From Spirochaetia bacterium (GTDB lineage Bacteria > Spirochaetota > Spirochaetia > DSM-27196 > Salinispiraceae), in contig JBBRCZ010000001.1 in NCBI GenBank assembly GCA_038204425.1, forward strand, positions 224,001-288,000: 64,000 bases of DNA, in the 5' to 3' direction. This document shows positions 27,310 through 53,277 of the stretch, in pieces (within the stretch, counting starts at the first letter, position 1; every line of letters begins with the position of its first letter). The notes under the pieces are model-generated. The model saw only the letters and a list, made by a program, of their open reading frames with translations, ran no database searches and was not told the origin of the DNA. Position numbers and translations under genes: made by a program.

Positions 27310-27816
27310 CTATGCCTTTTTTGCTGCTTCCAATGCTTTGCCGTAATCTGGTTCTTGAGCGATTTCTGGTACTTGTTCAGTGTAAACAACTCTGTCCTGT
27401 TTATCAATTACCACTATCGCTCTGCTCAAAAGTCCTGCTAATGGTCCATCAACAATGTCTACGCCATAAGCAGAACCAAATGATCCATCTCGCAAAGAAG
27501 AAAGTGTAAGCACGTTGTTGATACTCTCACTTTTACAGAATCTATTTTGGGCAAAGGGTAGGTCTTTACTGATGGTAAGTACCACGGTATCAGCCAAGCG
27601 GGCAACTTCAAGATCTAATCGACGCGTACTTGCGGCACAGACCCCGGTATCAAGTGAAGGAACGATGTTAAGGATCTTAACTTTTCCATCATAGTTAGAA
27701 AGGCTGACATCGCTCAGATCTGATTTGGTAAGCATAAAGTTTGGGGCCGTTGTCCCGATGGCCGGCAACTGTGATACCGTATGAATAGGTTTTCCTTTAA
27801 ATGTAATGGTGGCCAT
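27310..27816 (-). CDS. tpx: Thiol peroxidase (atypical 2-Cys peroxiredoxin)
   Basis: PSLDTGVCA, SKDLPFAQ.RFC, EPDY. Confidence 0.95.
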   Translation of the reverse strand: MATITFKGKPIHTVSQLPAIGTTAPNFMLTKSDLSDVSLSNYDGKVKILNIVPSLDTGVCAASTRRLDLEVARLADTVVLTISKDLPFAQNRFCKSESINNVLTLSSLRDGSFGSAYGVDIVDGPLAGLLSRAIVVIDKQDRVVYTEQVPEIAQEPDYGKALEAAKKA

Positions 27817-39612: not shown

Positions 39613-40110
39613 ATGAAGATTTCGGCAGACGCACAAGCGTCAATCAATAGTCAAATTAAAGAAGAGTTTGAATCGGCGTTTATCTATTTGTCCATGGAAG
39701 CATGGTTTTCGGCGAAAGACCTAGGCGGTTTTGCGTCATGGATGAGAGTACAGTATCGGGAGGAGACCGAGCATGCATTCAAGATGCTTGACTATTTGGT
39801 GCAGCGAGACGGAAGTGCCGAGATTCCAGCTATCGCAAAGGCGCAAGGCGTATGGAAGAGTCCTTTAGAGATTTTTGAAGCCGCGTACAAACATGAGCAG
39901 TACATCACAACAAAGATTTACGCCATTGTCGAAGCAGCGCGCAAAACAGGCGATTTGGCGACCGAGAATTTTTATCGTTGGTTCGTGAGTGAACAAGTAG
40001 AAGAGGAAGCCTCCGCTCTAAGCATTGTGAAACAACTTAAAATCGCCAACGATAATCCAGCTATAATTCTCATGATAGATAGACAATTAGCTGCTCGAGC
40101 AAGAGCTTAG
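39613..40110 (+). CDS. ftnA: Non-heme ferritin
   Basis: QI.EE..SA..YLSM, EE.EHA, HEQ.IT, WFV.EQVEEE ferroxidase residues; AAGGAG RBS. Confidence 0.93.
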   Translation: MKISADAQASINSQIKEEFESAFIYLSMEAWFSAKDLGGFASWMRVQYREETEHAFKMLDYLVQRDGSAEIPAIAKAQGVWKSPLEIFEAAYKHEQYITTKIYAIVEAARKTGDLATENFYRWFVSEQVEEEASALSIVKQLKIANDNPAIILMIDRQLAARARA

Positions 40111-40194
40111 AAAGCTTGACTTTTACGTCAAGCTCACCCATGATGTGAACTGATGAAGTATATAACTTCGTAAATACGAACAAGGAGCATAAGG

Positions 40195-40356
40195 ATGAAG
40201 AAGTACGTATGCCAGGTTTGTGGCTATATTTATGATCCCGCTGAAGGCGATCCAGACAATGGTGTAGCCCCTGGTACAAGCTTTGAAAACATTCCCGAAG
40301 ACTGGGTATGTCCAATGTGTGGAGCTGATAAAACTGACTTTGTTCTCGAAGACTGA
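40195..40356 (+). CDS. Rubredoxin (53 aa)
   Basis: Below the ORF-track cutoff: [62 protein letters not shown]. Confidence 0.97.
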
Positions 40357-40376: not shown

Positions 40377-40421
40377 AAAGAGCCTGTCCCAGAATAAAAA
40401 TCTGAGACAGGCTCTTTTTTT
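40377..40421. terminator. Intrinsic terminator, probably bidirectional, between rubredoxin and aroC
   Basis: AAAGAGCCTGTC...GACAGGCTCTTT stem with a T-run downstream and an A-run upstream, between convergent genes. Confidence 0.85.
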
Positions 40422-40441: not shown

Positions 40442-41497
40442 CTATGCTAGCAATGCTGCTTGGCGTTTGTAGGCGTCCTCTAGTACTAAACACACCATAG
40501 CCTCCACGACAGGAATAATACGTGGACAAATACAAGTGTCATGTCTACCTTCTGTTTTGATTTCTGTTTCTTGGCCTTGGATAGTCACGGTTCTTTGAGT
40601 TGAGGATATGGATGAAACAGGTTTTACTACGATTCTAAAAATCAGCTCGGCTCCAGTTGAAATTCCACCAATAATTCCACCAGCGTGATTGCTTATGAAG
40701 CCATTCTTGTCCATCCAGTCATTGTGTTCACTTCCCAGCATGTCTGCCGCTGCAAAGCCAGTTCCAAACTCTATGCCTTTTACCGCACCAATTGAAAGCA
40801 TCGCATGCGCAAGTTCAGCATCAAGTTTGTCAAACACTGGTTCGCCGAGTCCCGCTTGGAGGCCATTTACTCTGCACTCAATAATGCCGCCAGCACTATC
40901 TTGGTTATCTTTTATTGTCGTTAAGCGCTTTACCATTTCATCAGCAGCTACAAGATCGCAGGCTCTTAGTAGATTTTTTTCGATAACCGAGGGGTCGTAC
41001 GTTTGGCACTCCACGCCGGCCACTCGCTTTGAATATGCTATCACCGATACACCGCGTTGCGAGAGCAGTTTGCGGGCTATGGTGCCTGCTGCTACTCTTG
41101 CCGCGGTTTCTCGGCCCGATGCTCGGCCAGACCCACGATAGTCACGTAATCCGTATTTTTTTAAGTAGGTAAAGTCTGCGTGGCCAGGACGAAATTTGTT
41201 TTTAATATCATCATATGCAGAAGGTTGGGCGTCCTGATTGTACAAGATCAAAAGCATGGGTGTACCGGTTGCCTTTCCCTCAAAATGCCCTGAAAGAATA
41301 TGAATTCTGTCTGGTTCTTGACGTGGGGTAGTGATAAAATTTTGGCCTGGTTTTCTTCTATCTAACTGGATTTGAATTTCTTCTTCACTAATCTCAAGGC
41401 CTGGAGTAACACCATCAACAACTACTCCAACTGCGCCACCGTGGGATTCGCCAAAAGTACTAATCTTAAAAACGTGTCCAAAACTACTTCCTGCCAT
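40442..41497 (-). CDS. aroC: Chorismate synthase
   Basis: FGESHG, RPGHAD, RASGRETAARVAAG, GRHD.C. Confidence 0.97.
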   Translation of the reverse strand: MAGSSFGHVFKISTFGESHGGAVGVVVDGVTPGLEISEEEIQIQLDRRKPGQNFITTPRQEPDRIHILSGHFEGKATGTPMLLILYNQDAQPSAYDDIKNKFRPGHADFTYLKKYGLRDYRGSGRASGRETAARVAAGTIARKLLSQRGVSVIAYSKRVAGVECQTYDPSVIEKNLLRACDLVAADEMVKRLTTIKDNQDSAGGIIECRVNGLQAGLGEPVFDKLDAELAHAMLSIGAVKGIEFGTGFAAADMLGSEHNDWMDKNGFISNHAGGIIGGISTGAELIFRIVVKPVSSISSTQRTVTIQGQETEIKTEGRHDTCICPRIIPVVEAMVCLVLEDAYKRQAALLA

Positions 41498-42077
41498 TGA
41501 AATACTCCTCTAGTGAACGCTCGGTTCTTGCTTTAACATCAGGGATATCTAAAAAGTTGCCATCAATTACTATATCCGCTTGCGTATGCGCCAGATCCCG
41601 TCGCTTTGAATAAATTAGTGAAAAACTCTCACGAGGATAATCTTGATCTAAAAAAGCTGGAATACCTGTTTTGATAATTCTAGAATACAAGACAGACTCT
41701 TCTACGTCTATGAAGACTACTACGGTTCCACTGCTCTTGATGATGCTCATCAAGGCAGTGTTCTCCATAGTGCCGCCACCAAGAGAGAGAACATTGCCCA
41801 CTATTTGGTTTGGCATATCGTTTTCTAGGTACTCAAAGGCCCTAAGTTCAAATTCCTTGAAGGTCTTTTGTCCTGCACTTTGGTAAAACGATCGAATACA
41901 GACTGAGTCGTCTAGCACTTCCGAAAGCCCATCGGTTCTAATCAAATCCGCAATGATCTTATCAAGGTCAAAACATCTTAGGCCCAAGTCGTCGGCAAGA
42001 AGACGAGCGACTGATGTCTTGCCGCAATGCTTAAGTCCGGATAGTGCAATGGTGGGCAAATCTACTAATTTTTGCAT
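41484..42077 (-). CDS. aroK: Shikimate kinase
   Basis: GLKHCGKT Walker A, DLD, SLGGG; overlaps the aroC start. Confidence 0.88.
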   Translation of the reverse strand: MQKLVDLPTIALSGLKHCGKTSVARLLADDLGLRCFDLDKIIADLIRTDGLSEVLDDSVCIRSFYQSAGQKTFKEFELRAFEYLENDMPNQIVGNVLSLGGGTMENTALMSIIKSSGTVVVFIDVEESVLYSRIIKTGIPAFLDQDYPRESFSLIYSKRRDLAHTQADIVIDGNFLDIPDVKARTERSLEEYFNGRK

Positions 42078-42116: not shown

Positions 42117-42566
42117 TTAGTACAAAACCTCTTTTATGTCCTGTGGGTTAATTCTAAAAATGGAACCTCGGCCTTGTAGAAAGTGATATTTTTCAAACAT
42201 ATGCAGGCTCAATTCATTGTAAAGCAAATGCAAACCAGTTCCGATTCTCTCCACTTCACAATTGACTTTGTGGAATATGCCGTCTTCCCAAGGCGACGGC
42301 AAGGTACCCCTAGTTTCATCAACTTTTACCAACCATTTGTTGTCGACAGTTATTGCTACACTCAATCCAGCTTTGCCGGCTTCCAATAGTTGCTTTAAGA
42401 GCAAAAAACTTTGGTCCCAGTCAAGGCCAAGTTTAGTCATAACTTCTTCATCGGCTTCGATGATATCAGTAATAGGCCGCTTGTCGCGCCCGAGAAATCC
42501 TGTTGCGGTGATAACACCAGCTTGCATATTTTCTTGTGCTTTAATACTATCAAAACTCTGTTTCAT
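42117..42566 (-). CDS. Conserved hypothetical protein immediately downstream of nqrF
   Basis: 149 aa from ATG 42566 with a GAGGAG RBS; motifs GFLG.D.R and H...YHFLQGRGS.FR. Confidence 0.8.
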   Translation of the reverse strand: MKQSFDSIKAQENMQAGVITATGFLGRDKRPITDIIEADEEVMTKLGLDWDQSFLLLKQLLEAGKAGLSVAITVDNKWLVKVDETRGTLPSPWEDGIFHKVNCEVERIGTGLHLLYNELSLHMFEKYHFLQGRGSIFRINPQDIKEVLY

Positions 42567-42584
42567 GGTTAACTCCTCATCCAA

Positions 42585-43709
42585 TCAGGCAAATTTATCA
42601 AAGTAGATATTTTCTTCTTTCATGGAATTTTTACGCATTACATTCATGCATGCGTCAAGCATTCCTGGACTTCCACATAAATAACCTTCTTTGTTCTGTT
42701 CAAGTGGCATCTTTTCTTGCAAGTACGTGTTGAGCACTTCGGTGATTAGACCAGTAGCACCTTCCCATTTTTCGTCGGGCTGGGGTTCAGATAGAGCAGG
42801 AACAAAATGAAAGCGTTCATATTTTTTGTCCAAGTCCCAAAGCCAATCTAAGTAAAACATATCTCGTGTGGTTCGGGCTCCAAAGAAGTACCAAATGTCA
42901 CGTTTGCCCATGGAGCCACTTTCAATCATACCATTAAAAATTGACTTAAATGGAGCCATGCCAGAACCGCCTGCAACACAAATCATAGCTGCGTCGTTGT
43001 CTTTGACATGGAATTCACCTACTGGTGCAACTATGTTAATCTTTTGCCCTTCCTTGAGTAAAGTGTGAACATAACTGGTTACGATGCCGCCTGGCACAAG
43101 CCTAATCAAAAACTCAATATGGGTTTTGAGCTGTGGATGACTAGAAAAAGAGTAGGCACGTTGAGTTGATTCTTTTATATCACCATATGCGGGTACTTCA
43201 AACTGACCGTATTGTCCGGCAATATAGTTGAGTTCTAGTCCTTCTGGCAGCTTCAGAAGTACTTGCTTAATGTCGTGGGTAACGGTGCTAATTTTTTCAA
43301 CGTTACAGCTAAACTTTTTTATGTTAAAAAGTTCTTCAGGAATTTTGATGGCTAAGTCGGTTTTAACTTTGACCTGACAAGACAGATGCACGTTATCTGC
43401 TATCTCTTGTGCATTTAAGTAAGGAAGTTCAGTTGGCAAATGTAGACCAACGTCGCTTTGAATCTGGCACTTACAAGCCCCACATGAACCTCGACCGCCG
43501 CAAGCGGAAGGGACGTAAATTCCCTGTTCTGCGAGAGTCCCAAGCAGTTTGCTTCCGCCTTTAACTAAGAGTTGCTTTTTTCCATCGTTTATATCAATGG
43601 TTACTTCACCATAGTTGTTGACGATACTGTCGGTTATGGAAAGCAAGGCACCCAGGATCGCACTTATAAGTGCAACTACCAAAGGCGCCAAAATTATTGC
43701 TATAGACAC
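42585..43709 (-). CDS. nqrF: NqrF-like NADH-oxidising subunit (TM - 2Fe-2S - FAD - NAD)
   Basis: N-terminal TM; SACGGRGSCGAC...LSCQVKV; RAYS; AGGSGMAP; FFGAR; YLCGSP; DKF. Confidence 0.88.
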   Translation of the reverse strand: MSIAIILAPLVVALISAILGALLSITDSIVNNYGEVTIDINDGKKQLLVKGGSKLLGTLAEQGIYVPSACGGRGSCGACKCQIQSDVGLHLPTELPYLNAQEIADNVHLSCQVKVKTDLAIKIPEELFNIKKFSCNVEKISTVTHDIKQVLLKLPEGLELNYIAGQYGQFEVPAYGDIKESTQRAYSFSSHPQLKTHIEFLIRLVPGGIVTSYVHTLLKEGQKINIVAPVGEFHVKDNDAAMICVAGGSGMAPFKSIFNGMIESGSMGKRDIWYFFGARTTRDMFYLDWLWDLDKKYERFHFVPALSEPQPDEKWEGATGLITEVLNTYLQEKMPLEQNKEGYLCGSPGMLDACMNVMRKNSMKEENIYFDKFA

Positions 43710-43727
43710 GTGCTGTACCTCACTTTC

Positions 43728-44321
43728 TTACTGTACCTTGAGCATGCCGGAAAAACCAATAAATGCCATGGCCATAAAGCCAATCGTGATGAGTGTTATA
43801 CCTGGACCTTGGAGGCCTGCCGGTACAGGATTTTTGTCCACTTTCTTTCTAATGGCCGAAAGTGCCATAATTGCCATCCACCAGCCTATACCTGAACCTA
43901 ATCCAAACGAAATTGATTGAACAAAGTCATAATTCCTGATCTGCATAAACAGAACCGCGCCCAAAATAGCACAATTAACCGTTATGAGAGGCAAAAATAT
44001 TCCTAGACTCATGTACAGGCTTGGAGAAATTCTTTCAATGACCATCTCAAGAACCTGAACAACTGCGGCAATTACAACAATAAAAACAATAAAGGCAAGG
44101 TATTCGATGCCAAGCGGAACAAGTATGAACTTAAGCACTAGCCAGTTAATGGCCACTGTCAAGACCAAGACAATGGTTACAGCTATTCCTAAGCCATTGG
44201 AACTCTTGAAATCTTTTGAAATTGATATGAATGAACACATTCCCAAAAAATTTGCCAAAAGTATATTGGATGTAAAAATAGACGCAAACAAAAGTGTAAT
44301 CGGATCAACAACTGGACTCAT
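43728..44321 (-). CDS. nqrE: NqrE/RnfA-family membrane subunit
   Basis: FLGMCSF and LPLITVNCAILG (both Fe-ligating Cys); AGGAGG RBS; ATGA overlap with nqrD. Confidence 0.88.
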   Translation of the reverse strand: MSPVVDPITLLFASIFTSNILLANFLGMCSFISISKDFKSSNGLGIAVTIVLVLTVAINWLVLKFILVPLGIEYLAFIVFIVVIAAVVQVLEMVIERISPSLYMSLGIFLPLITVNCAILGAVLFMQIRNYDFVQSISFGLGSGIGWWMAIMALSAIRKKVDKNPVPAGLQGPGITLITIGFMAMAFIGFSGMLKVQ

Positions 44322-44950
44322 TTTTTGCCTCCTTGTGTGCTGTCTTTGAGCATCTTGGTTTTTGAAATCCAAAGAAGGATTCCAACTAAGAAAAACGCTG
44401 AAGGAGCCATAACCATAATTGTCCAGTTGTTACCACCGGCAGCAAACTCAAGGGGGAGAATTTGGACACCAAATAAAGTCCCAAAACCTAAGAACTCACG
44501 TACTACGGCAATTAGCATCAAGACCGCCATGTATCCCAAACCACTAGTCAATCCATCCCAGAAACTTAATAGTGGGGGATTGGCTTGGGCATAGGCTTCG
44601 GCACGACCCATGATAATACAGTTGGTTATAATTAGGCCTACATAAGGGCCAAGGTTCTTAGAAACTTCTGGGGCATAGGCTCGTAAAAGAATATCTACGA
44701 TAATTACGTAAAACGCTATTACCATAGTTTGCACTATCATTCTAACCTTGCGCGGAATCAAGTTGTTGATAGCTGATAGGGTAAAACTTGAAAAAGCGGT
44801 AACCAAGGCCACCCCAATGGTCATTATTAGTGTATTTGACAGTAAATTGGTTACTGCCAGCGTGGAACAGATCCCTAAGATTTGTATCAAAATGGGGTTG
44901 TTTGTCCAAACATTGTCTTTTAGTACGGCAATTATTTTATTTTCGCTCAT
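44318..44950 (-). CDS. nqrD: NqrD/RnfE-family membrane subunit
   Basis: NNPI..QILGICSTLAVT, GLIITNCIIMGRAE, APSAFF. Confidence 0.88.
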   Translation of the reverse strand: MSENKIIAVLKDNVWTNNPILIQILGICSTLAVTNLLSNTLIMTIGVALVTAFSSFTLSAINNLIPRKVRMIVQTMVIAFYVIIVDILLRAYAPEVSKNLGPYVGLIITNCIIMGRAEAYAQANPPLLSFWDGLTSGLGYMAVLMLIAVVREFLGFGTLFGVQILPLEFAAGGNNWTIMVMAPSAFFLVGILLWISKTKMLKDSTQGGKK

Positions 44951-45636
44951 TGTACCGCTCCTGAAAGTATGCTCTTGAGGTCGGCAATTGACTTGTTAAC
45001 GAGGTCGCGAACACCGTTAGTAGTCAGGGTAGCTCCGGTGACTCCATCAACAACGTCGTCATTATAGTTCTGGTCGCCAGTACCATCTCCGGCCTTGTAT
45101 CTCAGGATTCCGCTTGCTGGGATAGCTTGGCCATTAAACTGATTATAGAACCATGGTTCACCAATCCGAGCGCCAAGGCCCGGTGTCTCAACTTGAGCCA
45201 GAACTTGCAAACCCTTAAATTGGCTTACTTCACTATTTACCCCGATCGCAAGTGTGATGTTTCCCCAGAGAGCGGGACCTATAAAGGTGCCAGCCCAACG
45301 TGTTTCTTGATTAACAACCGTTCTATAATAGATTTGAAATATCGGGGAGCCACTTTTTCGAGCCTGTTCCAATTGTTGATTGCTTACTTGGGTTAGTTTC
45401 TTGTTTCCATCCAGCGTGAACTTATCTAGGTCTGCAAATAGCTTGAGGATATTGTCTGTATCACTCACCGAATAGCTGATACCCAATGCTGTTAAAATGC
45501 CGTTTGCATCGCTGAGCTTGCGATTCTGCTCGACAATTGGCTTGGTTGCTTCATTGGCAAGTGCCAAAGGAAAAACTAGTACAAAAGTTGCAATAAACGA
45601 AAATATGACCGTGTAGATCAAACTGTTTTTGTTCAT
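44947..45636 (-). CDS. nqrC: NqrC/RnfG-family FMN-binding subunit
   Basis: N-terminal TM; G.ALWG.I; ETPGLGA.I; flavinylation motif DGVTGATLT. Confidence 0.88.
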   Translation of the reverse strand: MNKNSLIYTVIFSFIATFVLVFPLALANEATKPIVEQNRKLSDANGILTALGISYSVSDTDNILKLFADLDKFTLDGNKKLTQVSNQQLEQARKSGSPIFQIYYRTVVNQETRWAGTFIGPALWGNITLAIGVNSEVSQFKGLQVLAQVETPGLGARIGEPWFYNQFNGQAIPASGILRYKAGDGTGDQNYNDDVVDGVTGATLTTNGVRDLVNKSIADLKSILSGAVQ

Positions 45637-46838
45637 GCTTTTACCTCAGCCTTAGGCGCGGCCTTTTTCTTTGCGGGTAGCAGCTCATCCAATAACGCGG
45701 CAAAGGTATTTGCAGTCAGGATGCCAAAGCTTACCCCCTCTGGAAAAGCTGAGAAACAACGAACCACAATAGTTACACCGCCGATTAAAAAACCGTAAAA
45801 CCATTGTGAAAGTGGCTTTTTAGGTGCTGTTACCGGGTCGGTTGCCATAAATACTGCAACAAAAAACAAACTACCCGCCATCATGAAGGCTGCAATGTCA
45901 CTAAGTTGGGCCAGTATGTCTTTTCCACTTGGATCGAGTAGGGGCAACTTGGCCTTCATGAGGCCAGTGTAGTAAAAGATTACAGTCAATATTAGCGCTG
46001 ACAACAAAGTTGAAACTATCATCTTCCAGTTGGCGACTCTGTTCCAGACCAAATAGATGCCAGCCAGTATTATTAAGAAAATAGGACCCTCGCCAATGCT
46101 CCCCACTCTAAGTCCAAAAAACATATTTACAAGATTGTTTTCCTTTAGGTAAGCAAGTGACGCTGGTGGATTCCAATCCGCTCCCAGTCCCCTAAACAGT
46201 TCTAGCGGTGTTGCAGTTGCAATGGCGTCGACTTCTAACTGTCCATTGCCTCGCCATCCGGTATAGGCGCTAACAATGTAAAAGGCGATTACCAAAGCTG
46301 TAGCACCAAGCGAAGTTACAATAACTCTTTTTTTGTCTTCTGGTTTCGCTTTTATTATTAGAAAAGCAACGATTGAGATTATCAAGAAGAATACTGCTTC
46401 GGTCCAAACACTTGGCAAGACTTGGACGTTAATTCCCAATGTTCCTGCAAAGCCTGGGAACATCCAGGTTGTCTGCATCAACAAAGGAAAACTGATGTAG
46501 GTAAACATCCGGCCTGCGATAGCTGGATTAAAAATATTCCGTCCAAATCCGCCGTAAGCTTCTTTTCCAATCAAAATAGCAAAAACGATGCCGACAGCTG
46601 CTACCCACAAAGGTACTGCAGGCGGCAAGGAAAGTGAGAACAGAGCTGCAGTAACCCAAACGGCTTCTGAAACCTTTTTGTTTCGCGATTTTTCCACGAC
46701 CATCTCGGTAAGAATACCCAATAAGAATACTACCGCTGTCACCACAACGCTGCGCCATCCGTAAAGCCAGATAGACCACAGAAAGATGGGTGCCAAAGAG
46801 TAGACGACTTTGCGCATCGGATCCTGTTTAATGAACAC
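45633..46838 (-). CDS. nqrB: NqrB/RnfD-family membrane subunit
   Basis: KE.YGG.G.NIFNPA..GR, DAIATATPL (FMN Thr), GSIGE, FMATDPVT.P, FPEG; GTG start with AAGGAGG. Confidence 0.88.
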   Translation of the reverse strand: MFIKQDPMRKVVYSLAPIFLWSIWLYGWRSVVVTAVVFLLGILTEMVVEKSRNKKVSEAVWVTAALFSLSLPPAVPLWVAAVGIVFAILIGKEAYGGFGRNIFNPAIAGRMFTYISFPLLMQTTWMFPGFAGTLGINVQVLPSVWTEAVFFLIISIVAFLIIKAKPEDKKRVIVTSLGATALVIAFYIVSAYTGWRGNGQLEVDAIATATPLELFRGLGADWNPPASLAYLKENNLVNMFFGLRVGSIGEGPIFLIILAGIYLVWNRVANWKMIVSTLLSALILTVIFYYTGLMKAKLPLLDPSGKDILAQLSDIAAFMMAGSLFFVAVFMATDPVTAPKKPLSQWFYGFLIGGVTIVVRCFSAFPEGVSFGILTANTFAALLDELLPAKKKAAPKAEVKA

Positions 46839-47147
46839 GGTGCCTCCTTGTTCTCAAATAACTACAAATTTTCGTAAAAACATACCCTTTTATTCTACCT
46901 TTTATCGACCTGCTTAGGTAGTGTTTTTTGCACAAAACCGTTTGCACCAAAACACGACTGGGTTAGTCATAAATAGACAAGATCAAGATATGTAATCATG
47001 CTTATTTTATCAATATGAAAAGTGTGATTGGAAGCAAGGATTTGTAAAAATAGTTTAATATAGCTATAGTGATGCCGGCAAATCGTTGCCTTTTATGACT
47101 GATTGTGTCATATTTTACCGGCTTTACTGGAACTAAGGAGTACCTGC

Positions 47148-48053
47148 TTGCCTTTTGAATCGTTTGTCTACCTCATGACATCCAGCAATACTTGCAGCAA
47201 TCTGTCTTGGGAAGAATGGCTTTTTGACCATTTGCAAGCAGATCAGCGTGCGTTTTTGGTATATGAAAATATGCCATCTTTAGTAATCGGCAAGAATCAG
47301 AATGCGTGGGTAGAAGGCGATCACACTTTTCTGAGTCAACAGAATGTAGGGGTGGTGCGCAGAGTCTCTGGCGGAGGTACGGTAGTTCATGGTAAAGGGA
47401 ATGTGAACTACTCTTTTGTGGTTCCGCGTCAAAGCTTCAGCCAGACCCAAAATCTTAGCTTGTTGCAAAGATTTTTTGGATCTTTGGGACTTATGACAAC
47501 TCAGTCAGAGCGAGGCGATCTTTTGTTTGAAGATAGAAAGTTTTCGGGAAACGCAATGGCATATCGTCAAAGGAGTGTTTTGCACCATGGGACACTATTG
47601 TTCGATCTCGAACAGGAATTTTTGTTCCGTTGTCTCAAGCGCCCTATCGCGTCTGGATGGCTTAGAAAAAATAGTTCAGTTAAATCAAACCCTATGCCTA
47701 CCGTCAATTTGGGTCGCCATTTGAAGTTCGCCAGTCAAGTTGATTTTGCTCGAGATTTGGCGCACTGGATAGCTTCGCAATGGGGAGTGGGTGTAAAAGA
47801 GATAGACAGCAGTTTGCAGCCCACAAAAACTGTGGCTTATGCAGAAAAATATAGCAATTGGCAGTGGAATTTTGGGCATTCGCCTAATTTTAGTTTTGCG
47901 GATCCTGAACCAGAGTCGCATAGGACTATAATTGAAGTAGAAAATGGCATGATGGTACGGAGAATCAATTCGGACGGCAGCCGTTTGGATTTTGATCCTT
48001 TACCCTTTGTTGGTTTTGACGATGAAGACGCCTTACGTAGATTGGTAAACTAG
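47148..48053 (+). CDS. lplA: Lipoate-protein ligase A
   Basis: VIGKNQN, RRVSGGGTV.H..GN.NYS, KFSGNA, HHGTLL, W.WNFG.SP; TTG 47148 follows AAGGAG. Confidence 0.92.
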   Translation: MPFESFVYLMTSSNTCSNLSWEEWLFDHLQADQRAFLVYENMPSLVIGKNQNAWVEGDHTFLSQQNVGVVRRVSGGGTVVHGKGNVNYSFVVPRQSFSQTQNLSLLQRFFGSLGLMTTQSERGDLLFEDRKFSGNAMAYRQRSVLHHGTLLFDLEQEFLFRCLKRPIASGWLRKNSSVKSNPMPTVNLGRHLKFASQVDFARDLAHWIASQWGVGVKEIDSSLQPTKTVAYAEKYSNWQWNFGHSPNFSFADPEPESHRTIIEVENGMMVRRINSDGSRLDFDPLPFVGFDDEDALRRLVN

Positions 48054-48072
48054 TAGAACTTGGAGGAAAGTT

Positions 48073-48513
48073 ATGGAAGTACGCGCAATGTTAGGAATTT
48101 TGGACAGGCTGTTGGATGATGCAAAGATTGCAGTTTTGGCTAACTCGGCTGAGGATGGAAGTCCCTCGGTTAGATGGATGAGTCCGGCTCTTGTTAGAGG
48201 ACGAGAAGGTTACCTATATGCGGTTACTTCGAGTAAGTTTACTAAAACCAATCAACTAGAAAAGTCCCCCAAGGTGATGTGGATGGTCCAAACCAAGGCT
48301 TTGGATGAAATTATGAGCATCAAGGGAAATATGCATGTTTTACGCAATCCTTCTTTGCAACAAGAGGTCATTGAAGCAATTGGTAGCAAGCTGGGTACCT
48401 TCTGGAAGCTCAATAAAGACACGGATGACGTAGTGGTGCTAGAAACGGTAATTGAAGAACTGGAATACTTTGCTCCTGCAAAAAATGAAAAGTCCAGCGT
48501 ACGAATTAAATAA
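48073..48513 (+). CDS. Pyridoxamine 5'-phosphate oxidase-like (FMN-binding split barrel) protein
   Basis: VLA...DG.P.VR.M, T...T.K..QL..SPKV; GGAGG RBS; lies inside the PDH operon. Confidence 0.75.
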   Translation: MEVRAMLGILDRLLDDAKIAVLANSAEDGSPSVRWMSPALVRGREGYLYAVTSSKFTKTNQLEKSPKVMWMVQTKALDEIMSIKGNMHVLRNPSLQQEVIEAIGSKLGTFWKLNKDTDDVVVLETVIEELEYFAPAKNEKSSVRIK

Positions 48514-48524
48514 GGAGCTTCTTA

Positions 48525-49547
48525 ATGTCGGACAAAAAATTGGGTGTAAAAAAATTGGCCATTAAGGACTACGACCCCAAGTTCCTTGAAAAGCTGCTCT
48601 ATGACATGCTGTTGATTAGGCGTTTTGAAGAAAAAGCCGGTGCGATGTATGGCCTTCGCAAAATTGGTGGGTTTTGCCACTTATACAATGGGCAAGAAGC
48701 TGTTGCTATAGGCAGTATTGGTGCCTTGGATCTTAGTAGAGATTACGTTCTCACAGGGTATCGAGACCACGGTCATGCACTGGCTTGTGGCATGCATCCC
48801 AACCAAATTATGGCCGAACTCTACGGAAAAGTGACCGGCTCGTCAAAGGGGAAAGGCGGCAGTATGCACATTTTTGATGCCGAAAAGCATATGATGGGCG
48901 GTAACGGTATTGTTGGCGCACAGATACCGATTGCAACCGGAATAGCCTTTGCCAGCGCCTATGACTTTAAACTAGGAAAAACAAAAGATATGGGTGTCAC
49001 ACTTTGTTATTTTGGTGACGGAGCGATCCATCAAGGGGCCTTTCATGAAAGCCTAAACTTGGCTAGAATTTGGAATTTGCCGGCGGTTTATATTGTTGAG
49101 AATAATCACTTTGGCATGGGAACTGCCGTTAGCCGTGTCTCGGCCGTCAGCGACTTTGACGTAAAAGCAAAGGGCTACAACATGCCAGGCATTACCGTAA
49201 ACGGCATGGACGTCCTAGAAGTATATGAGACACTAAAGTCGATTGTAAAAGAAGTGAGAGAAAACGGTATTCCTTGGTTGGTTGACATTAAGACCTATCG
49301 ATACAAAGGCCACTCGATGTCTGACCCTGCCAAGTATCGAAGCAAGGACGAAGTCGACAGTTTTAAGAACCAAGATCCAATTGTGCAACTAAAGCAGAAG
49401 ATGTTAGAAGCAGGCGTGCTTTCGGAAAGTGGATACCAAAAAATGGATGATGGTATCAAAGAACTGGTTCAAGCTTCGGTTACCTTTGCCGAAGAAAGCC
49501 CTGAACCGGCATTGGAAAGTATCTATCAGGACGCCTACGCGGAATAA
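48525..49547 (+). CDS. pdhA: Pyruvate dehydrogenase E1 alpha subunit
   Basis: GFCHLY.GQEA, GKGGSMH, GDGA TPP motif, YRYKGHSMSDP. Confidence 0.95.
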   Translation: MSDKKLGVKKLAIKDYDPKFLEKLLYDMLLIRRFEEKAGAMYGLRKIGGFCHLYNGQEAVAIGSIGALDLSRDYVLTGYRDHGHALACGMHPNQIMAELYGKVTGSSKGKGGSMHIFDAEKHMMGGNGIVGAQIPIATGIAFASAYDFKLGKTKDMGVTLCYFGDGAIHQGAFHESLNLARIWNLPAVYIVENNHFGMGTAVSRVSAVSDFDVKAKGYNMPGITVNGMDVLEVYETLKSIVKEVRENGIPWLVDIKTYRYKGHSMSDPAKYRSKDEVDSFKNQDPIVQLKQKMLEAGVLSESGYQKMDDGIKELVQASVTFAEESPEPALESIYQDAYAE

Positions 49548-49561
49548 CGGGAGAAATAATA

Positions 49562-50539
49562 ATGGCATTAATTACTTATCGTGAGGCCCTCAATCAGGCC
49601 ATGGATGAAGAAATGGCGCGGGATGACCGGGTCTATTTGATGGGCGAAGAAGTTGCCGAATATAACGGCGCTTACAAGGTTTCTAAAGGTCTTTTGGATA
49701 AATATGGTCCTATTAGGGTCATTGATACGCCAATTGCCGAGCTCGGCTTTACCGGCTTGGGGGTTGGTTCCGCAATCGTTGGTTTGCGACCAATTATCGA
49801 ATGGATGACCATGAACTTTGGAATTCTTGCACTTGATCAAATCGTAAACAACGCGGCCAAGTTAAGGCACATGTCAGGTGGACAACTTAAATGCCCGATG
49901 GTAGTCAGAGGACCCAACGGTCCAGCCGAATATTTATCAAGTCAACACAGCCAGGCCCTGGCAAGCTACTTTGCACACATACCCGGCCTAAAAGTTGTCT
50001 CTCCAATTACGCCTTATGACGCCAAGGGTTTGCTCAAGAGTGCAATCCGGGATGACAATCCAGTCATCGTGCTAGAAGCTGAAATGGTCTATGGCCATAC
50101 AGGCGAGGTTCCAGACGAAGAGTATCTGGTTCCTATCGGCAAGGCCGACGTAAAGAGAAGCGGAAGCGACGTAAGCTTTATTGCCTACGGCAAGCCGGTT
50201 TTACTCGCATTGCAGGCAGCCGCAGAACTCGAAAAGCAAGGAATTAGTGCGGAGGTTGTCGACCTTCGTTCAGTTAGACCAATTGATGAAGCAGCAATCT
50301 ACGAAAGTGTTCGTAAGACCAATCGAGCAGTAGTAATAGACGAAAGCTGGCCGATCGCATCGATAGGAAGTCATGTCTCTCATTTAATAGCGACTAATTG
50401 TTTTGATGACCTTGATGCTCCGGTTGAGTATGTTTCTTGTGAGGATGTACCCATGCCTTATAATCATGCACTTGAACTTGCAGTGCAGCCAAGCGTTGAA
50501 AAAATTGTAAAAGCGGCAAAGAAGGTTCTTTACCTTTAA
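49562..50539 (+). CDS. pdhB: Pyruvate dehydrogenase E1 beta subunit
   Basis: MGEEV..Y.GAYKVSKGL, DTPIAE.GF, RGPNG, QHSQ. Confidence 0.95.
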   Translation: MALITYREALNQAMDEEMARDDRVYLMGEEVAEYNGAYKVSKGLLDKYGPIRVIDTPIAELGFTGLGVGSAIVGLRPIIEWMTMNFGILALDQIVNNAAKLRHMSGGQLKCPMVVRGPNGPAEYLSSQHSQALASYFAHIPGLKVVSPITPYDAKGLLKSAIRDDNPVIVLEAEMVYGHTGEVPDEEYLVPIGKADVKRSGSDVSFIAYGKPVLLALQAAAELEKQGISAEVVDLRSVRPIDEAAIYESVRKTNRAVVIDESWPIASIGSHVSHLIATNCFDDLDAPVEYVSCEDVPMPYNHALELAVQPSVEKIVKAAKKVLYL

Positions 50540-50593
50540 GAGATTGAGAGTATGTTTGTTCACTCAAGAAATAGAGCAAACTAGGAGACCAGC

Positions 50594-51835
50594 ATGGCAG
50601 AAAAAATTCAAATGATCGCGCTTTCTCCCACCATGGAAGAAGGCACAATAGTAAAATGGAACCTCAAAGTCGGCGACAGTGTTAAAACCGGCGATGTTTT
50701 GTGCGAAGTAGAAACAGACAAAGCCACTATGGAGTACGAGTCTTCCCAAGAGGGTACTATACTCAAAATAGTTCTTGACCAAGGAAGCACAGCAAAAGTT
50801 GGCGACATGATTGGCATAATTGGTGCCAAGGGTGAGGATATTTCTGCAATTGCCTCTAGTCCAGCTGAGGCAAGCCCAGCAGCAAGTAGTGATGCCAAGT
50901 CAGCTTCCAAAGCGAATGAAACGCCAGCTTCGACAGTCCAAGCAAGTAATCAAGACTCCAACCATGCAAGTGGTTCTACCAAGGCAAGTCCCTTGGCGCG
51001 AAAACTTGCCGCCGATCGCGGCATAGATTTAACTAACGTTTCGGGGACTGGTCCTGACGGTCGTGTAATCAAACGAGACTTAGAAGGTCAGGCAAGTGGC
51101 AAACCAGCTGGCCAAAGCCCATCGGCCTCAACAGTTGTCAGTTCCGGACAGGATCAAAAAATACAAGTTACTGGCAAGCGCGCAGTTATTGCCAAGCGTT
51201 TGGCTGAGTCCCTTTTTACAGCTCCACATTTCTTCTTGACATCAAGTGTTGCAATGGATAATTTAATTGCCACCCGCAATTTATTAAACAAACAAGTTGA
51301 TCCCAAGTCCAAGGTAGGCTTTAATGCCTTTATTATCAAACTTGCCGCCGAAGCCTTAAAGCGTCACGCTGCGGTCAACGCTTCTTGGCAAGGTGATCAT
51401 ATCTTGCAGTTTGGCAGCATTGATATTGGTCTTGCAGTGGACCTAGGTAACGGCCTCATCACGCCGATTGTGCGTAACGCAGCCAACAAGGGTGTTTACC
51501 AAATTGATCAAGAACTAAAGGTGCTTATAGAAAAAGCAGGAGCCGGCACTCTCAAACCCGATGAATATTCTGGCGCAACATTTACAATATCTAACCTCGG
51601 CAGTTTTGGAGTAGAAGAGTTTACTGCCATAATTAACCCGCCAGGCAGCGCAATTCTTGCCCTTGGCGAAGTCAAGAAAACGCCAGTTGTGGGTGAAAAT
51701 GATCAAATTGTCGTCGCAAGCATAATGAAAATGACCGTTTCATGCGATCATCGCGTTATTGATGGTGCACTTGGTGGTCGGTTTATCGCGGAACTTAAAG
51801 CACTGCTGGAACAGCCAGCACGAGCAATTTTTTGA
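50594..51835 (+). CDS. pdhC: Dihydrolipoamide acetyltransferase (E2), single lipoyl domain
   Basis: ETDKA lipoyl Lys, [10 protein letters not shown]3-binding domain, CDHRVIDG. Confidence 0.95.
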
Positions 51836-51876
51836 TCCGACTTTGATTTTTACGACGCACGAGGAGAGATACAGAT

Positions 51877-53277
51877 ATGGCAGAATTTGACTACGATTTG
51901 GCAATTATTGGAGCAGGGCCTGGTGGCTATGTAAGCGCGATTAGAGCAAGTCAGCTGGGGCTAAAAACCGTTGTAATAGAAAAAGACAAACCGGGCGGCG
52001 TATGTGGCAACTGGGGCTGTATACCTTCCAAATCATTGTTGAGTATGGCAGAAACCTTTCATTCTATTAAGTCGTTAGAAGCCATGGGTGTCAAAGTTGA
52101 CAAAACGAGCTTTGACTACCAAAAAGTACATGCCCGTTCCCGCGCCGCCAGCGACCGATCCGGCAAAGGTGTCGCCGGACTTCTCAAACGAAACAAAATT
52201 GAACTATTAAGTGCCACAGCGACCCTTACCAGCCCACACGAACTGCAGCTCACGACTGCTGAAGGCAAGCGAACAGTTACAAGTAAGAACATTCTAATTG
52301 CAAGTGGCAGCAGCCCGCGTGTAATTCCTGGCTTTGAGTTTGACGAACAACAAGTGCTTTCATCAACGGGAATTCTGGCGATGGACAAGCTTCCAGAAAG
52401 TCTGGTTATCCTTGGTGCTGGCGCCATAGGTATGGAACTTGCCTATATAATGAACGCTTTCGGCGTTAAGGTAAGTGTAGTTGAAATGCTCGACAGAGTG
52501 TTGCCGCTTGAAGACGCCGACATCAGTAAAGTCGTTGAGTCAGAATTGAAGAAGCAAGGAATTACTTTTTTAACCTCAACAAAAGCTTCTGATCTAAAGA
52601 AGTCTAAAGCAGGCATCAGCTTGCAGATAGAAACTAAGTCAGGCCAAAAAAGTAAACTAGAGGCAGAAAAGATTCTGGTAGCGGTCGGACGCAGTCCCAA
52701 CAGTGCCAATTTGGGACTTGAAAAACTCGGCATTGCAATCGAAAAAGGCTTTGTCGTCACTGGAGACTACTACCAAACCTCAGTAAAGAGTGTCTTTGCC
52801 ATTGGAGATCTTATAGCTAGCCCCTTACTGGCTCATGTGGCTAGCAAAGAGGGTGAGATTGCAGTTGAGTATATTGCCGGACATGGACACGAAAAACGAT
52901 TAGATCCAAGTCTTATTCCCGGCGCAGTTTATACCGAACCTGGGGTGGGTAGCTTTGGATTGACTGAAGCAAAAGCGCTTGAGCAAAAACTTGATATAAG
53001 TGTTTACAGCTTTCCCTACCAAGGGATAGGCAAGGCAAATGCGATCGAAAAAGCAGTAGGACTGGTAAAGATTGTTTGCGATAAGAAAACACACGAGATT
53101 TTAGGCGGGCATGTAGTAGGTTACAGCGCCACCGAAATGATTCATGAAATCTTGCTGGCACGAAAAGCCGAGCTTCTACCTGAAGACATTGCGAGCATGG
53201 TTCATGCCCATCCCACCATATCTGAAGGTATAATGGAAGCTATGCGCGGCATCGAAGGTTGGGCGATTCACGTTTAG
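51877..53277 (+). CDS. lpdA: Dihydrolipoamide dehydrogenase (E3)
   Basis: GAGPGG, GGVCGNWGCIPSK, GAGAIG.E, HAHPT.SE. Confidence 0.96.
   Translation: MAEFDYDLAIIGAGPGGYVSAIRASQLGLKTVVIEKDKPGGVCGNWGCIPSKSLLSMAETFHSIKSLEAMGVKVDKTSFDYQKVHARSRAASDRSGKGVAGLLKRNKIELLSATATLTSPHELQLTTAEGKRTVTSKNILIASGSSPRVIPGFEFDEQQVLSSTGILAMDKLPESLVILGAGAIGMELAYIMNAFGVKVSVVEMLDRVLPLEDADISKVVESELKKQGITFLTSTKASDLKKSKAGISLQIETKSGQKSKLEAEKILVAVGRSPNSANLGLEKLGIAIEKGFVVTGDYYQTSVKSVFAIGDLIASPLLAHVASKEGEIAVEYIAGHGHEKRLDPSLIPGAVYTEPGVGSFGLTEAKALEQKLDISVYSFPYQGIGKANAIEKAVGLVKIVCDKKTHEILGGHVVGYSATEMIHEILLARKAELLPEDIASMVHAHPTISEGIMEAMRGIEGWAIHV

Follow-up and report, generated by a model that had tools for sequence, protein, structure and literature searches.

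A six-gene operon, nqrB-C-D-E-F plus a conserved gene that we call gene X, is found in the ORF list on the minus strand of the window (the whole 64,000-nucleotide stretch of DNA that was analysed). It opens with B (45633-46838), a 401-aa membrane subunit of the NqrB/RnfD family (PF03116) without the NqrA/RnfC docking arm. There follow C (44947-45636; PF04205), an NqrC-like anchored periplasmic FMN carrier, D (44318-44950; PF02508, over the PRK09292 cut-off), an NqrD, and E (43728-44321; PF02508, ATG start), an NqrE. The next gene, F (42585-43709), encodes a compact NqrF that combines a membrane anchor with 2Fe-2S, FAD and NADH-type domains (Fer2+FAD_binding_6+NAD_binding_1), and gene X (42117-42566) encodes a conserved soluble protein of 149 aa. 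Genes overlap by 4 bp at B/C, C/D and D/E, and 18 bp separate E from F. A preliminary description of 42117-46838 had reported an operon beginning at B, with five tightly coupled subunit genes and their cofactor sites intact. The overlaps and the aligned motifs bear this out, but the sixth ORF, 42117-42566, lies inside those limits and had been left unmentioned. The 309 bp of upstream DNA reported there also holds if the divergent lplA starts at the TTG at 47148; with the first possible start the gap is 264 bp.

Past gene X, aroK and aroC (40442-42077, minus strand) are probably on the same transcript, which would continue as far as a 17-pair hairpin (40377-40417) between aroC and a rubredoxin gene. 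This hairpin has an A-run on one side and a T-run on the other and is likely a terminator serving both directions. The two aro genes lie close to the operon only in near relatives (L011, L046), and a promoter scan stayed at chance level (17 vs 14.8). The rubredoxin, a 53-aa protein over the NF045768 cut-off that we propose as the electron acceptor, is encoded on the plus strand (40195-40356) just downstream of a ferritin gene (39613-40110, plus strand). It runs towards the end of the operon, with 1.76 kb between it and X, and since it lies on the opposite strand it is not co-transcribed with the operon. On the other flank, a divergent cluster (47103-53277, plus strand) carries the lipoate ligase, a PNPOx-like gene and pyruvate dehydrogenase E1a-E1b-E2-E3, and this pyruvate dehydrogenase cluster is a source of NADH. 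PDH or lipoate genes recur next to operons of this type in other lineages.

The ligands for a complete electron relay, from NADH through FAD and 2Fe-2S in F, 2Fe-2S in D/E and FMN in C to FMN and riboflavin in B, can be read from the sequence. In F the cysteines of the 2Fe-2S site are retained, as are the motifs for FAD and NADH and a Phe at the C-terminus; the protein scores 283.5 bits against TIGR01941, just missing the cut-off of 295. The cysteines C28/C111 of D and C29/C117 of E align with those of NqrD and NqrE, C carries T-G-A-T at residues 200-203, and T210 of B aligns with the RnfD FMN motif. Among the riboflavin contacts in B, G198, N200, N203 and A205 are invariant, D346 is present in 29/30 sequences and T162 is Thr or Ser. 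The nucleotide site of F has an acidic residue as in NqrF, which most F proteins keep; NADPH specificity, hinted at by neighbouring zwf genes, was rejected for the window protein. As for the ion path, the window B keeps the gate Phe326/Phe330 and the equivalents of E157, E274, F338, F342, G334 and D397, no residue clearly corresponds to D52, and the positions of E157 and F338 vary among the 30 B subunits. The window B also has an extra, largely hydrophobic insertion of ~65 residues at about 135-200; a shorter one occurs at the same place in only 5 of the other 29 aligned subunits.

The quinone end of B is different. Its start corresponds to RnfD residue ~18, so that, as had been noticed before, the N-terminal extension of NqrB (its first ~50-100 residues) is missing, and with it the quinone helices AH-I/AH-II. 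Of the quinone-site residues, G141 is replaced by Ile42 and F159 by Val60, and the G141 position is non-Gly in 30/30 aligned B subunits. Replacement of G141 blocks quinone binding (PMC10643135). By alignment, then, the known ubiquinone site is lost from B, and the earlier suggestion of a possibly non-quinone acceptor can be sharpened to one that is probably not quinone.

In the family at large, Nqr models give C, D, E and F their highest scores, and the core subunits stay under the rnfD, rnfG, rnfE and rnfA cut-offs. A contig scan with B as query returned 5 loci. In FastTree trees of D and E rooted on each other, all 23 D and E from operons without an A subunit (A-less) form one clade beside NqrA-type Nqr, against an Rnf sample of 14 from one phylum; the F tree likewise makes the A-less clade sister to Na+-NQR. 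A lineage that combines RnfC with an Nqr-type core branches before both the A-less and the NqrA-bearing clades in the D/E trees, an order explained most simply by loss of the A/C subunit in the A-less lineage. In terms of sequence, therefore, the complex is neither Na+-NQR nor Rnf but a sister clade of Na+-NQR. The first half of this statement had been anticipated; the idea of an Nqr/Rnf hybrid or evolutionary intermediate is not supported by the model scores and the D/E trees.

Could the missing subunit be encoded elsewhere? A genome search for an orphan nqrA or rnfC had been proposed, and in the genome of the window (G000, 96% complete) no nqrA exceeds the cut-off (PF05896, TIGR01936). Across the genomes compared, 0/41 have an nqrA match over cut-off; four matches are weak, and those inspected (G059, G130) head other operons. 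Two RnfC over cut-off are present in G000, each heading its own rnf cluster (C17 with RnfB and RnfC, C2 with RnfC), and one rnf operon is complete. RnfB and RnfC are absent at the window locus and at 38 related loci. The same genome encodes a flavodiiron protein, rubrerythrin, two rubredoxins and ApbE, and has no PF18267 rubredoxin-reductase domain, which is missing from 33/41 genomes.

Soluble NAD(P)H:rubredoxin oxidoreductases, which feed flavodiiron protein, rubrerythrin and superoxide reductase, are uncoupled enzymes of the glutathione-reductase fold. They share with the A-less operon the proposed overall reaction and the gene neighbourhood, whereas in the A-less complex the NADH-oxidising subunit is of the FNR type and is mounted on the core of an ion pump. 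Compared with NqrABCDEF of Vibrio cholerae (7XK3, 8A1T), the window operon has the same B-C-D-E-F order, NADH input via F, all six cofactor sites, the gate phenylalanines and the equivalents of D397 and E274; it differs in lacking NqrA and the N-terminal quinone helices, in the replaced G141 and F159, and in having a compact F and gene X with neither apbE nor nqrM. With Rnf (RnfABCDEG of Clostridium tetanomorphum, 7ZC6, and Acetobacterium woodii, 9ERI) it shares an RnfD-sized B, an RnfG-sized C and a homologous membrane core, but it has no RnfB or RnfC and takes its input through F. The available parts of the reports on two-subunit NQR/RNF-like systems describe partial Nqr/Rnf complexes that likewise have no A or C subunit, with B fused to an NAD-binding domain, D/E missing and the B FMN Thr lost (PMC8238504, PMC10979944); in the window, by contrast, D, E and F are separate and B is a stand-alone PF03116 protein that retains T210. 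Clusters of nqrBCDEF without nqrA appear in the available parts of genome papers on Pseudothermotoga thermarum and lettingae (PMC4148951), Clostridium ultunense (PMC5924567) and Ca. Izimaplasma ZiA1 (PMC6256511), with the same gene order, no nqrA in the genome and a separate rnf. The layout was thus printed in 2014 and 2018, and in these parts both longer papers call the electron acceptor unknown. The sixth gene and a rubredoxin link go unmentioned in the same parts of the published descriptions, in one of which the C. ultunense rubrerythrin CUESP_0386 lies seven locus tags from the operon CUESP_0375-0379 (PMC5924567).

Gene X immediately follows F in 35/38 and 74/80 loci and occurs in genomes of four phyla (39/301, 36/151, 21/301 and one named Fusobacteriota plasmid); an A-less operon without X also exists (L165). 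No Pfam family covers it, and an Atlas lead to DUF7919 was found on 13% of one cluster. Its structure model is confident, but fold searches gave no match, with no Foldseek hit at E 0.001 and, in a further search, a best Z of 2.8; this does not by itself prove a novel fold. His122, His127/128 and Lys100 are conserved and a Cys-Pro motif is common, its Cys being Ser in the window protein. A profile search recovered fusions of X with rubredoxin (P0096, P0101, L160), rubrerythrin (P0128) and nitroreductase (P0093); a word search, a weak method, found no longer forms. Apparent fusions to redoxin (P0124) and aldo-keto reductase (P0211) lack the start of X, look chimeric and were discarded. A natural X-rubredoxin fusion folded with pLDDT 95.7 and pTM 0.83 vs 0.88 for X alone, a model with a short linker and neither an error map nor a control that we do not count. 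Eight genome loci and L116 encode X with an anchor-less F and without B-C-D-E; the eight genomes have no A-less-type D, four giving no match and the other four at most 178 bits. These F proteins nest in the A-less clade at three places of the F tree, which indicates that at least three lineages dropped B-C-D-E and the F anchor and retained F+X. Since F+X is kept where B-C-D-E is lost, X goes with F and not with B, and a crude partial correlation of X is 0.33 with F and -0.06 with B.

The claim that the complex has no identifiable electron exit had overlooked two genes of the window, X and rubredoxin. A rubredoxin lies on the same strand directly 3′ of X, or is fused to it, at 13/37 informative phylum loci and 29/64 informative metagenome loci (2 of them fusions), compared with none in 17 NqrA/RnfC control loci; the linked loci are related, those from metagenomes include near-duplicates, and the linkage falls in about four tree clusters. 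In G200 the rubredoxin is 6.1 kb from X. Rubredoxin does not directly follow X in Ilyobacter, nor does it at any of 51 short loci from Fibrobacterota and Verrucomicrobiota, although some of these stop a little way past X. Genes for rubredoxin, rubrerythrin, superoxide reductase or flavodiiron protein flank 34/91 X loci of at least 11 kb vs 0/17 controls, by group 14/30, 16/23, 2/19, 2/18 and 0/1, being rare in two phyla. Whole operons were found that read Fur/PerR-like, rbr, tpx, fprA, sor, ftn, rbr-like, BCDEF-X, rub, zwf. The soluble F+X of L116 occupies the same slot of an oxygen-defence operon, before rubredoxin, and that of L318 follows rbr-rub. Rubredoxin itself is encoded in 41/41 genomes, a count that does not include X-negative genomes. 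In one family the Fe-S assembly genes nifU, iscS, iscU and rrf2 are common neighbours.

We tentatively favour, at somewhat short of even chances, the reading to which this gene context points, namely that the A-less complex is a membrane-bound, ion-pumping NADH:rubredoxin oxidoreductase in oxygen defence. Electrons from NADH would enter at F and run through D/E and the flavins of C and B to the riboflavin near the cytoplasmic face, which, with no A/C cap, would hand them singly to a small soluble one-electron carrier, rubredoxin. The potential of rubredoxin is about 0 mV and that of NADH -320 mV. Reduced rubredoxin would feed flavodiiron protein, rubrerythrin or superoxide reductase, and X would be an accessory of F whose task is to recruit rubredoxin or to position it. 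With less assurance, the relay may still move Na+ (or H+), and the cell would then gain an ion gradient as it removes O2 and peroxide at the expense of NADH, supplied by PDH or by the oxidative pentose phosphate pathway. Because X goes with F and not with B, F+X could also reduce rubredoxin directly, bypassing the pump. A broader proposal, which we regard as possible but doubtful, is that these operons represent a third branch of Rnf/NQR pumps that conserves the energy of NADH:rubredoxin oxidoreduction and provides anaerobes with a quinone- and cytochrome-free respiratory chain to O2 and peroxide, running from NADH through BCDEF-X and rubredoxin to flavodiiron protein or rubrerythrin, with X a new-fold adaptor on F and F+X a new soluble rubredoxin reductase that stays behind after each loss of the pump.

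The same genes allow other accounts. The enzyme might, though we think it unlikely, be branched. F+X would then by itself reduce rubredoxin (or a diiron protein) with NADH, and the membrane arm would open another way out, either via the C FMN to acceptors in the periplasm or outside the cell or to a different cytoplasmic carrier; the enzyme would serve oxygen defence without pumping ions on rubredoxin. F-type reductases of the DmpP and MmoC families, which reduce diiron proteins and small carriers directly, offer a precedent, and the anchor-less F+X loci, nested thrice in the A-less clade in genomes without A-less-type D, fit it. Such core loss, however, is equally expected if an uncoupled shortcut replaces the coupled route to the same acceptor, and the strong conservation of both B flavin sites fits a return path to the cytoplasm. 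To a still smaller degree of likelihood, X may help F to mature or to be repaired (by loading Fe-S or FAD, an NqrM-like role), the oxygen-defence context reflecting shared regulation and the B acceptor being some other soluble carrier, for example flavodoxin or free flavin. The position of X after F parallels apbE and nqrM after nqrF in canonical operons, and its conserved His and Lys residues, its Cys-Pro motif, the nifU-isc neighbours and the X-less operon agree with such a role; against it stand the clean fusions and tight adjacency of X with rubredoxin, and the Ser in place of the motif Cys in the window protein.

Whether quinone could after all be the acceptor, at a site unlike that of Vibrio NQR, has to be asked as well. 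Genes for a MenA-like prenyltransferase and a polyprenyl synthase occur in G000 together with an Ndh2-like gene, so that quinone may be made there from a scavenged precursor; a UbiA-family gene is present in 23/41 genomes, no direct function is assigned to NqrA, which carries no cofactor (PMC12174285), and the hydrophobic insertion in the window B is in keeping with an NADH:(demethyl)menaquinone oxidoreductase. We nevertheless give this a slim chance: G141 is replaced throughout and AH-I/AH-II are missing, 18/41 genomes (12/32 high-quality ones) have no UbiA-family gene, and in G000 neither cytochrome bd nor a head-group pathway was found (MqnA was absent, and neither MenB nor MenD exceeded the cut-off). 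It seems very improbable that the core acts in reverse, or like a transhydrogenase, with an RnfC borrowed from one of the two rnf clusters. Two RnfC are at hand, and operons joining RnfC to an Nqr-type core exist (L170, L171), but the latter are a separate lineage, both rnfC genes head their own clusters, B is missing the first ~17 residues of RnfD, and nothing would drive electrons from NADH to NAD+.

Since 2014 published papers have called the acceptor of NqrA-less Nqr unknown, and gene context now names rubredoxin as a small, easily made candidate, while F+X is a two-protein soluble module that is simple to assay. If ion pumping is coupled to this reaction, many anaerobes would gain energy from detoxifying oxygen and not only spend NADH on it, and to NAD+ and quinone a third kind of output of the Rnf/NQR core would be added.

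The five coupled ORFs of the operon, B to F (the homologues of NqrB to NqrF), occupy 42585-46838 of the minus strand, and the families and cofactor ligands assigned to them in the preliminary description agree with our family and alignment results. A sixth ORF, X, encoding a 149-aa protein, starts 18 bp past F on the same strand (42117-42566) and is followed by aroK-aroC, up to a strong hairpin at 40377-40417. The genome-wide search proposed earlier returned no nqrA match over the cut-off in the window's genome, G000 (95.6% complete), which its closest named matches would place in Spirochaetota; it did return rnfB on contig C17, rnfC on C17 and C2 and ApbE on C5. Each rnfC sits in an rnf cluster, complete on C17 (rnfB-C-D-G-E-A) and divergent on C2 (rnfC-D-E-A). 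In the latter (G000:C2:165707-169471), rnfG and rnfB were not seen and the membrane subunits look degenerate.

NqrBCDEF without NqrA is assigned to T. thermarum and T. lettingae in passages of PMC4148951 (2014), which call the other reaction partner unknown; passages of PMC5924567 report the same situation in C. ultunense, and a passage of PMC6256511 names NqrBCDEF in Izimaplasma. Neither the abstract and passages of a paper on NQR evolution (PMC4014512) nor the passages of a 2025 review (PMC12174285; 'rubredoxin', 0 occurrences) treat the NqrA-less complex, and the titles and abstract openings obtained by full-text searches of a mostly open-access library hold no link between the complex and rubredoxin or a sixth gene. 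The two-subunit NQR/RNF-like systems in passages of PMC8238504 and PMC10979944 are a different thing. The operon is real, its layout is already known and uncharacterised, and its product is an Rnf/NQR-family complex with a testable acceptor.

Is this complex a hybrid, or an evolutionary intermediate between Rnf and Nqr, as first proposed? The D/E trees do not support that view, placing the A-less type (operons without NqrA) as sister of NqrA-bearing Nqr. In the joint paralogue tree (112 sequences, 182 columns, FastTree), 23 A-less D formed one clade (support 0.986) and 23 A-less E another (0.97), with NqrA-bearing Nqr as sister at 0.898 for D and only 0.538 for E; in a D+E tree the sister relation reached 0.979, but support for the A-less clade itself was low (0.193). 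In an F tree rooted on oxygenase reductases, A-less F fell outside canonical NqrF, beside compact NqrA-type F. The simplest reading would be that the A/C subunit was lost in a sister line of Na+-NQR. Two operons combining RnfC with the B-C-D-E core split off before the A-less clade and NqrA-bearing Nqr in the D/E tree, whose Rnf sample is 14 loci of one phylum, and they would be better candidates for an Rnf-Nqr intermediate than the window's operon. These two loci, L170 (G130:C9) and L171 (G059:C4), carry RnfC, B-C-D-E, a 149-aa F with anchor and 2Fe-2S domain only, and then NuoE/F-like genes. L169 and L172, which have an NqrA-like gene and in which both B (362 aa) and F (364 aa) are compact, form a separate lineage beside canonical Nqr. 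In the nqr operon of a Nitratireductor plasmid (L321, NZ_CP029209.1), B is short (258 aa) and apbE is split.

At an E-value limit of 0.001 the X family counts 1077 representatives, and X has no Pfam family; fold searches with a confident structure model of X (pLDDT 94.7) gave no match. X is present in 39 of 301 genomes of the window's own phylum, in 36/151 Fibrobacterota and 21/301 Verrucomicrobiota genomes, and on an Ilyobacter polytropus plasmid. It directly follows F in 35 of 38 loci of the window's phylum (two of the others are contig ends, one lies apart), in 74 of the best 80 of 463 metagenome loci, the remaining 6 being uninformative, and in 30/30 Fibrobacterota and 19/21 Verrucomicrobiota loci examined. 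High-scoring A-less-type D occurs in 40 of the 301 genomes, 38 of which encode X as well; conversely, such a D is present in 38 of the 39 genomes with X. This co-occurrence is partly circular because the D profile was built from X-linked D. Genome G155 has an A-less operon without X beside the same divergent PDH genes as the window. The X domain also exists outside A-less operons, because two long proteins, P0068 (885 aa) and P0216 (2506 aa), contain three X-like repeats each.

Among the 40 wide loci of Fibrobacterota and Verrucomicrobiota, 8 have an anchor-less F followed by X but no B-C-D-E, as does metagenome locus L116; A-less-type D was not found in those 8 genomes, which are incomplete MAGs. 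Because the anchor-less F proteins nest inside the A-less F clade at three places, the core would have been lost repeatedly and X kept. At L116, F-X-rubredoxin-zwf occupies the slot of B-C-D-E-F-X-rubredoxin-zwf in relatives L123 and L129, and L318 reads rubrerythrin-rubredoxin-F-X. Judged by gene content, X goes with F rather than with the core, and a crude distance comparison agrees (partial correlation 0.33 with F, 0.21 with C and -0.06 with B; 89 loci, pairs not independent). At L318:9001-11049, X is fused in frame to a protein that by eye resembles PTS enzyme I, and a PTS enzyme I-like gene lies near F+X in neighbouring relatives.

Ubiquinone sits at G141, F159, L138 and helices AH-I/II according to passages of PMC10643135, where any G141 replacement would block its binding. 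In the window's B, G141 and F159 correspond to Ile42 and Val60 in an ungapped alignment and helices AH-I/II are missing; across 30/30 B subunits the residue at the G141 position is larger than Gly. In the same 30, riboflavin contacts are kept, the FMN threonine is kept at 90% or more, and the equivalents of E144, E274 and D397 are invariant. At the level of sequence, the flavin/Fe-S relay, which takes in electrons from NADH and crosses the membrane twice, is intact, whereas the known quinone site is gone; the sixth protein, X, is tied to F.

Rubredoxin directly follows X or is fused to it in 13 of 37 informative loci of the window's phylum (12 in one family, 1 in another) and in 29 of 64 informative metagenome loci; in the window, ferritin and rubredoxin genes (39613-40356) converge on the operon. 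Among loci of at least 11 kb, oxygen-defence genes (rubredoxin, rubrerythrin, superoxide reductase or flavodiiron, the flavodiiron calls being flavorubredoxin models matched under cut-off) accompany X in 14/30 loci of the window's phylum, window included, 16/23 metagenome loci and 2/19, 2/18 and 0/1 of the remaining sets, against 0/17 control loci bearing NqrA or RnfC; 'PerR-like' is our label for a Fur-family match. NADH-yielding genes (PDH, lipoate, zwf-pgl-gnd) adjoin 15/30, 11/23, 1/19 and 1/18 X loci and 0/17 controls. G000 encodes a flavodiiron protein, rubrerythrin and thiol peroxidase; searches of it for superoxide reductase, bd oxidase, MqnA and the PF18267 reductase domain gave no match, and MenB and MenD appeared only under cut-off. 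A possible regulator site is the short palindrome at 40157-40171, immediately before the rubredoxin gene begins. The window's thiol peroxidase gene (27310-27816) lies 12 kb from rubredoxin, and in metagenome loci tpx often neighbours the A-less operon.

We tentatively favour, short of an even chance, a joint reading in which electrons would leave B through its riboflavin and pass to rubredoxin, X would present rubredoxin on F, and ions would move as in NQR. Several points count against a rubredoxin acceptor: two phyla show only a weak link and the Ilyobacter locus none, the loci are related to one another, and MenA-like, polyprenyl synthase and Ndh2-like genes are present in G000. A new quinone site in the complex is improbable in our judgement, the known one being gone, and a borrowed RnfC very improbable, with both rnfC genes of G000 in rnf clusters. 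The region G000:C5:179859-186371 contains ApbE and, beside it, a small gene for an anchored protein, the Ndh2-like 655-aa gene and polyprenyl synthase; the MenA-like gene lies apart (C1:443573-444490). We take these genes to resemble parts of a flavin- and quinone-based extracellular electron transfer set. F-type and V/A-type ATPase clusters are both present in G000 (C15:46989-54751 and C1:160549-167759), the F-type with N-ATPase-like gene order.

Electrons might instead leave at F, through F+X, with the outlet of the membrane arm elsewhere, which we consider unlikely. The soluble F+X module, existing without the core, can be read in two ways: it indicates that electrons may leave at F, in which case the membrane arm may have a different outlet, but it also points to a single acceptor shared by F+X and the whole complex. 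That X is a maturation factor seems quite unlikely. Whether by the riboflavin of B, as we favour, or by an exit at F, the system would probably serve rubredoxin-linked oxygen defence.
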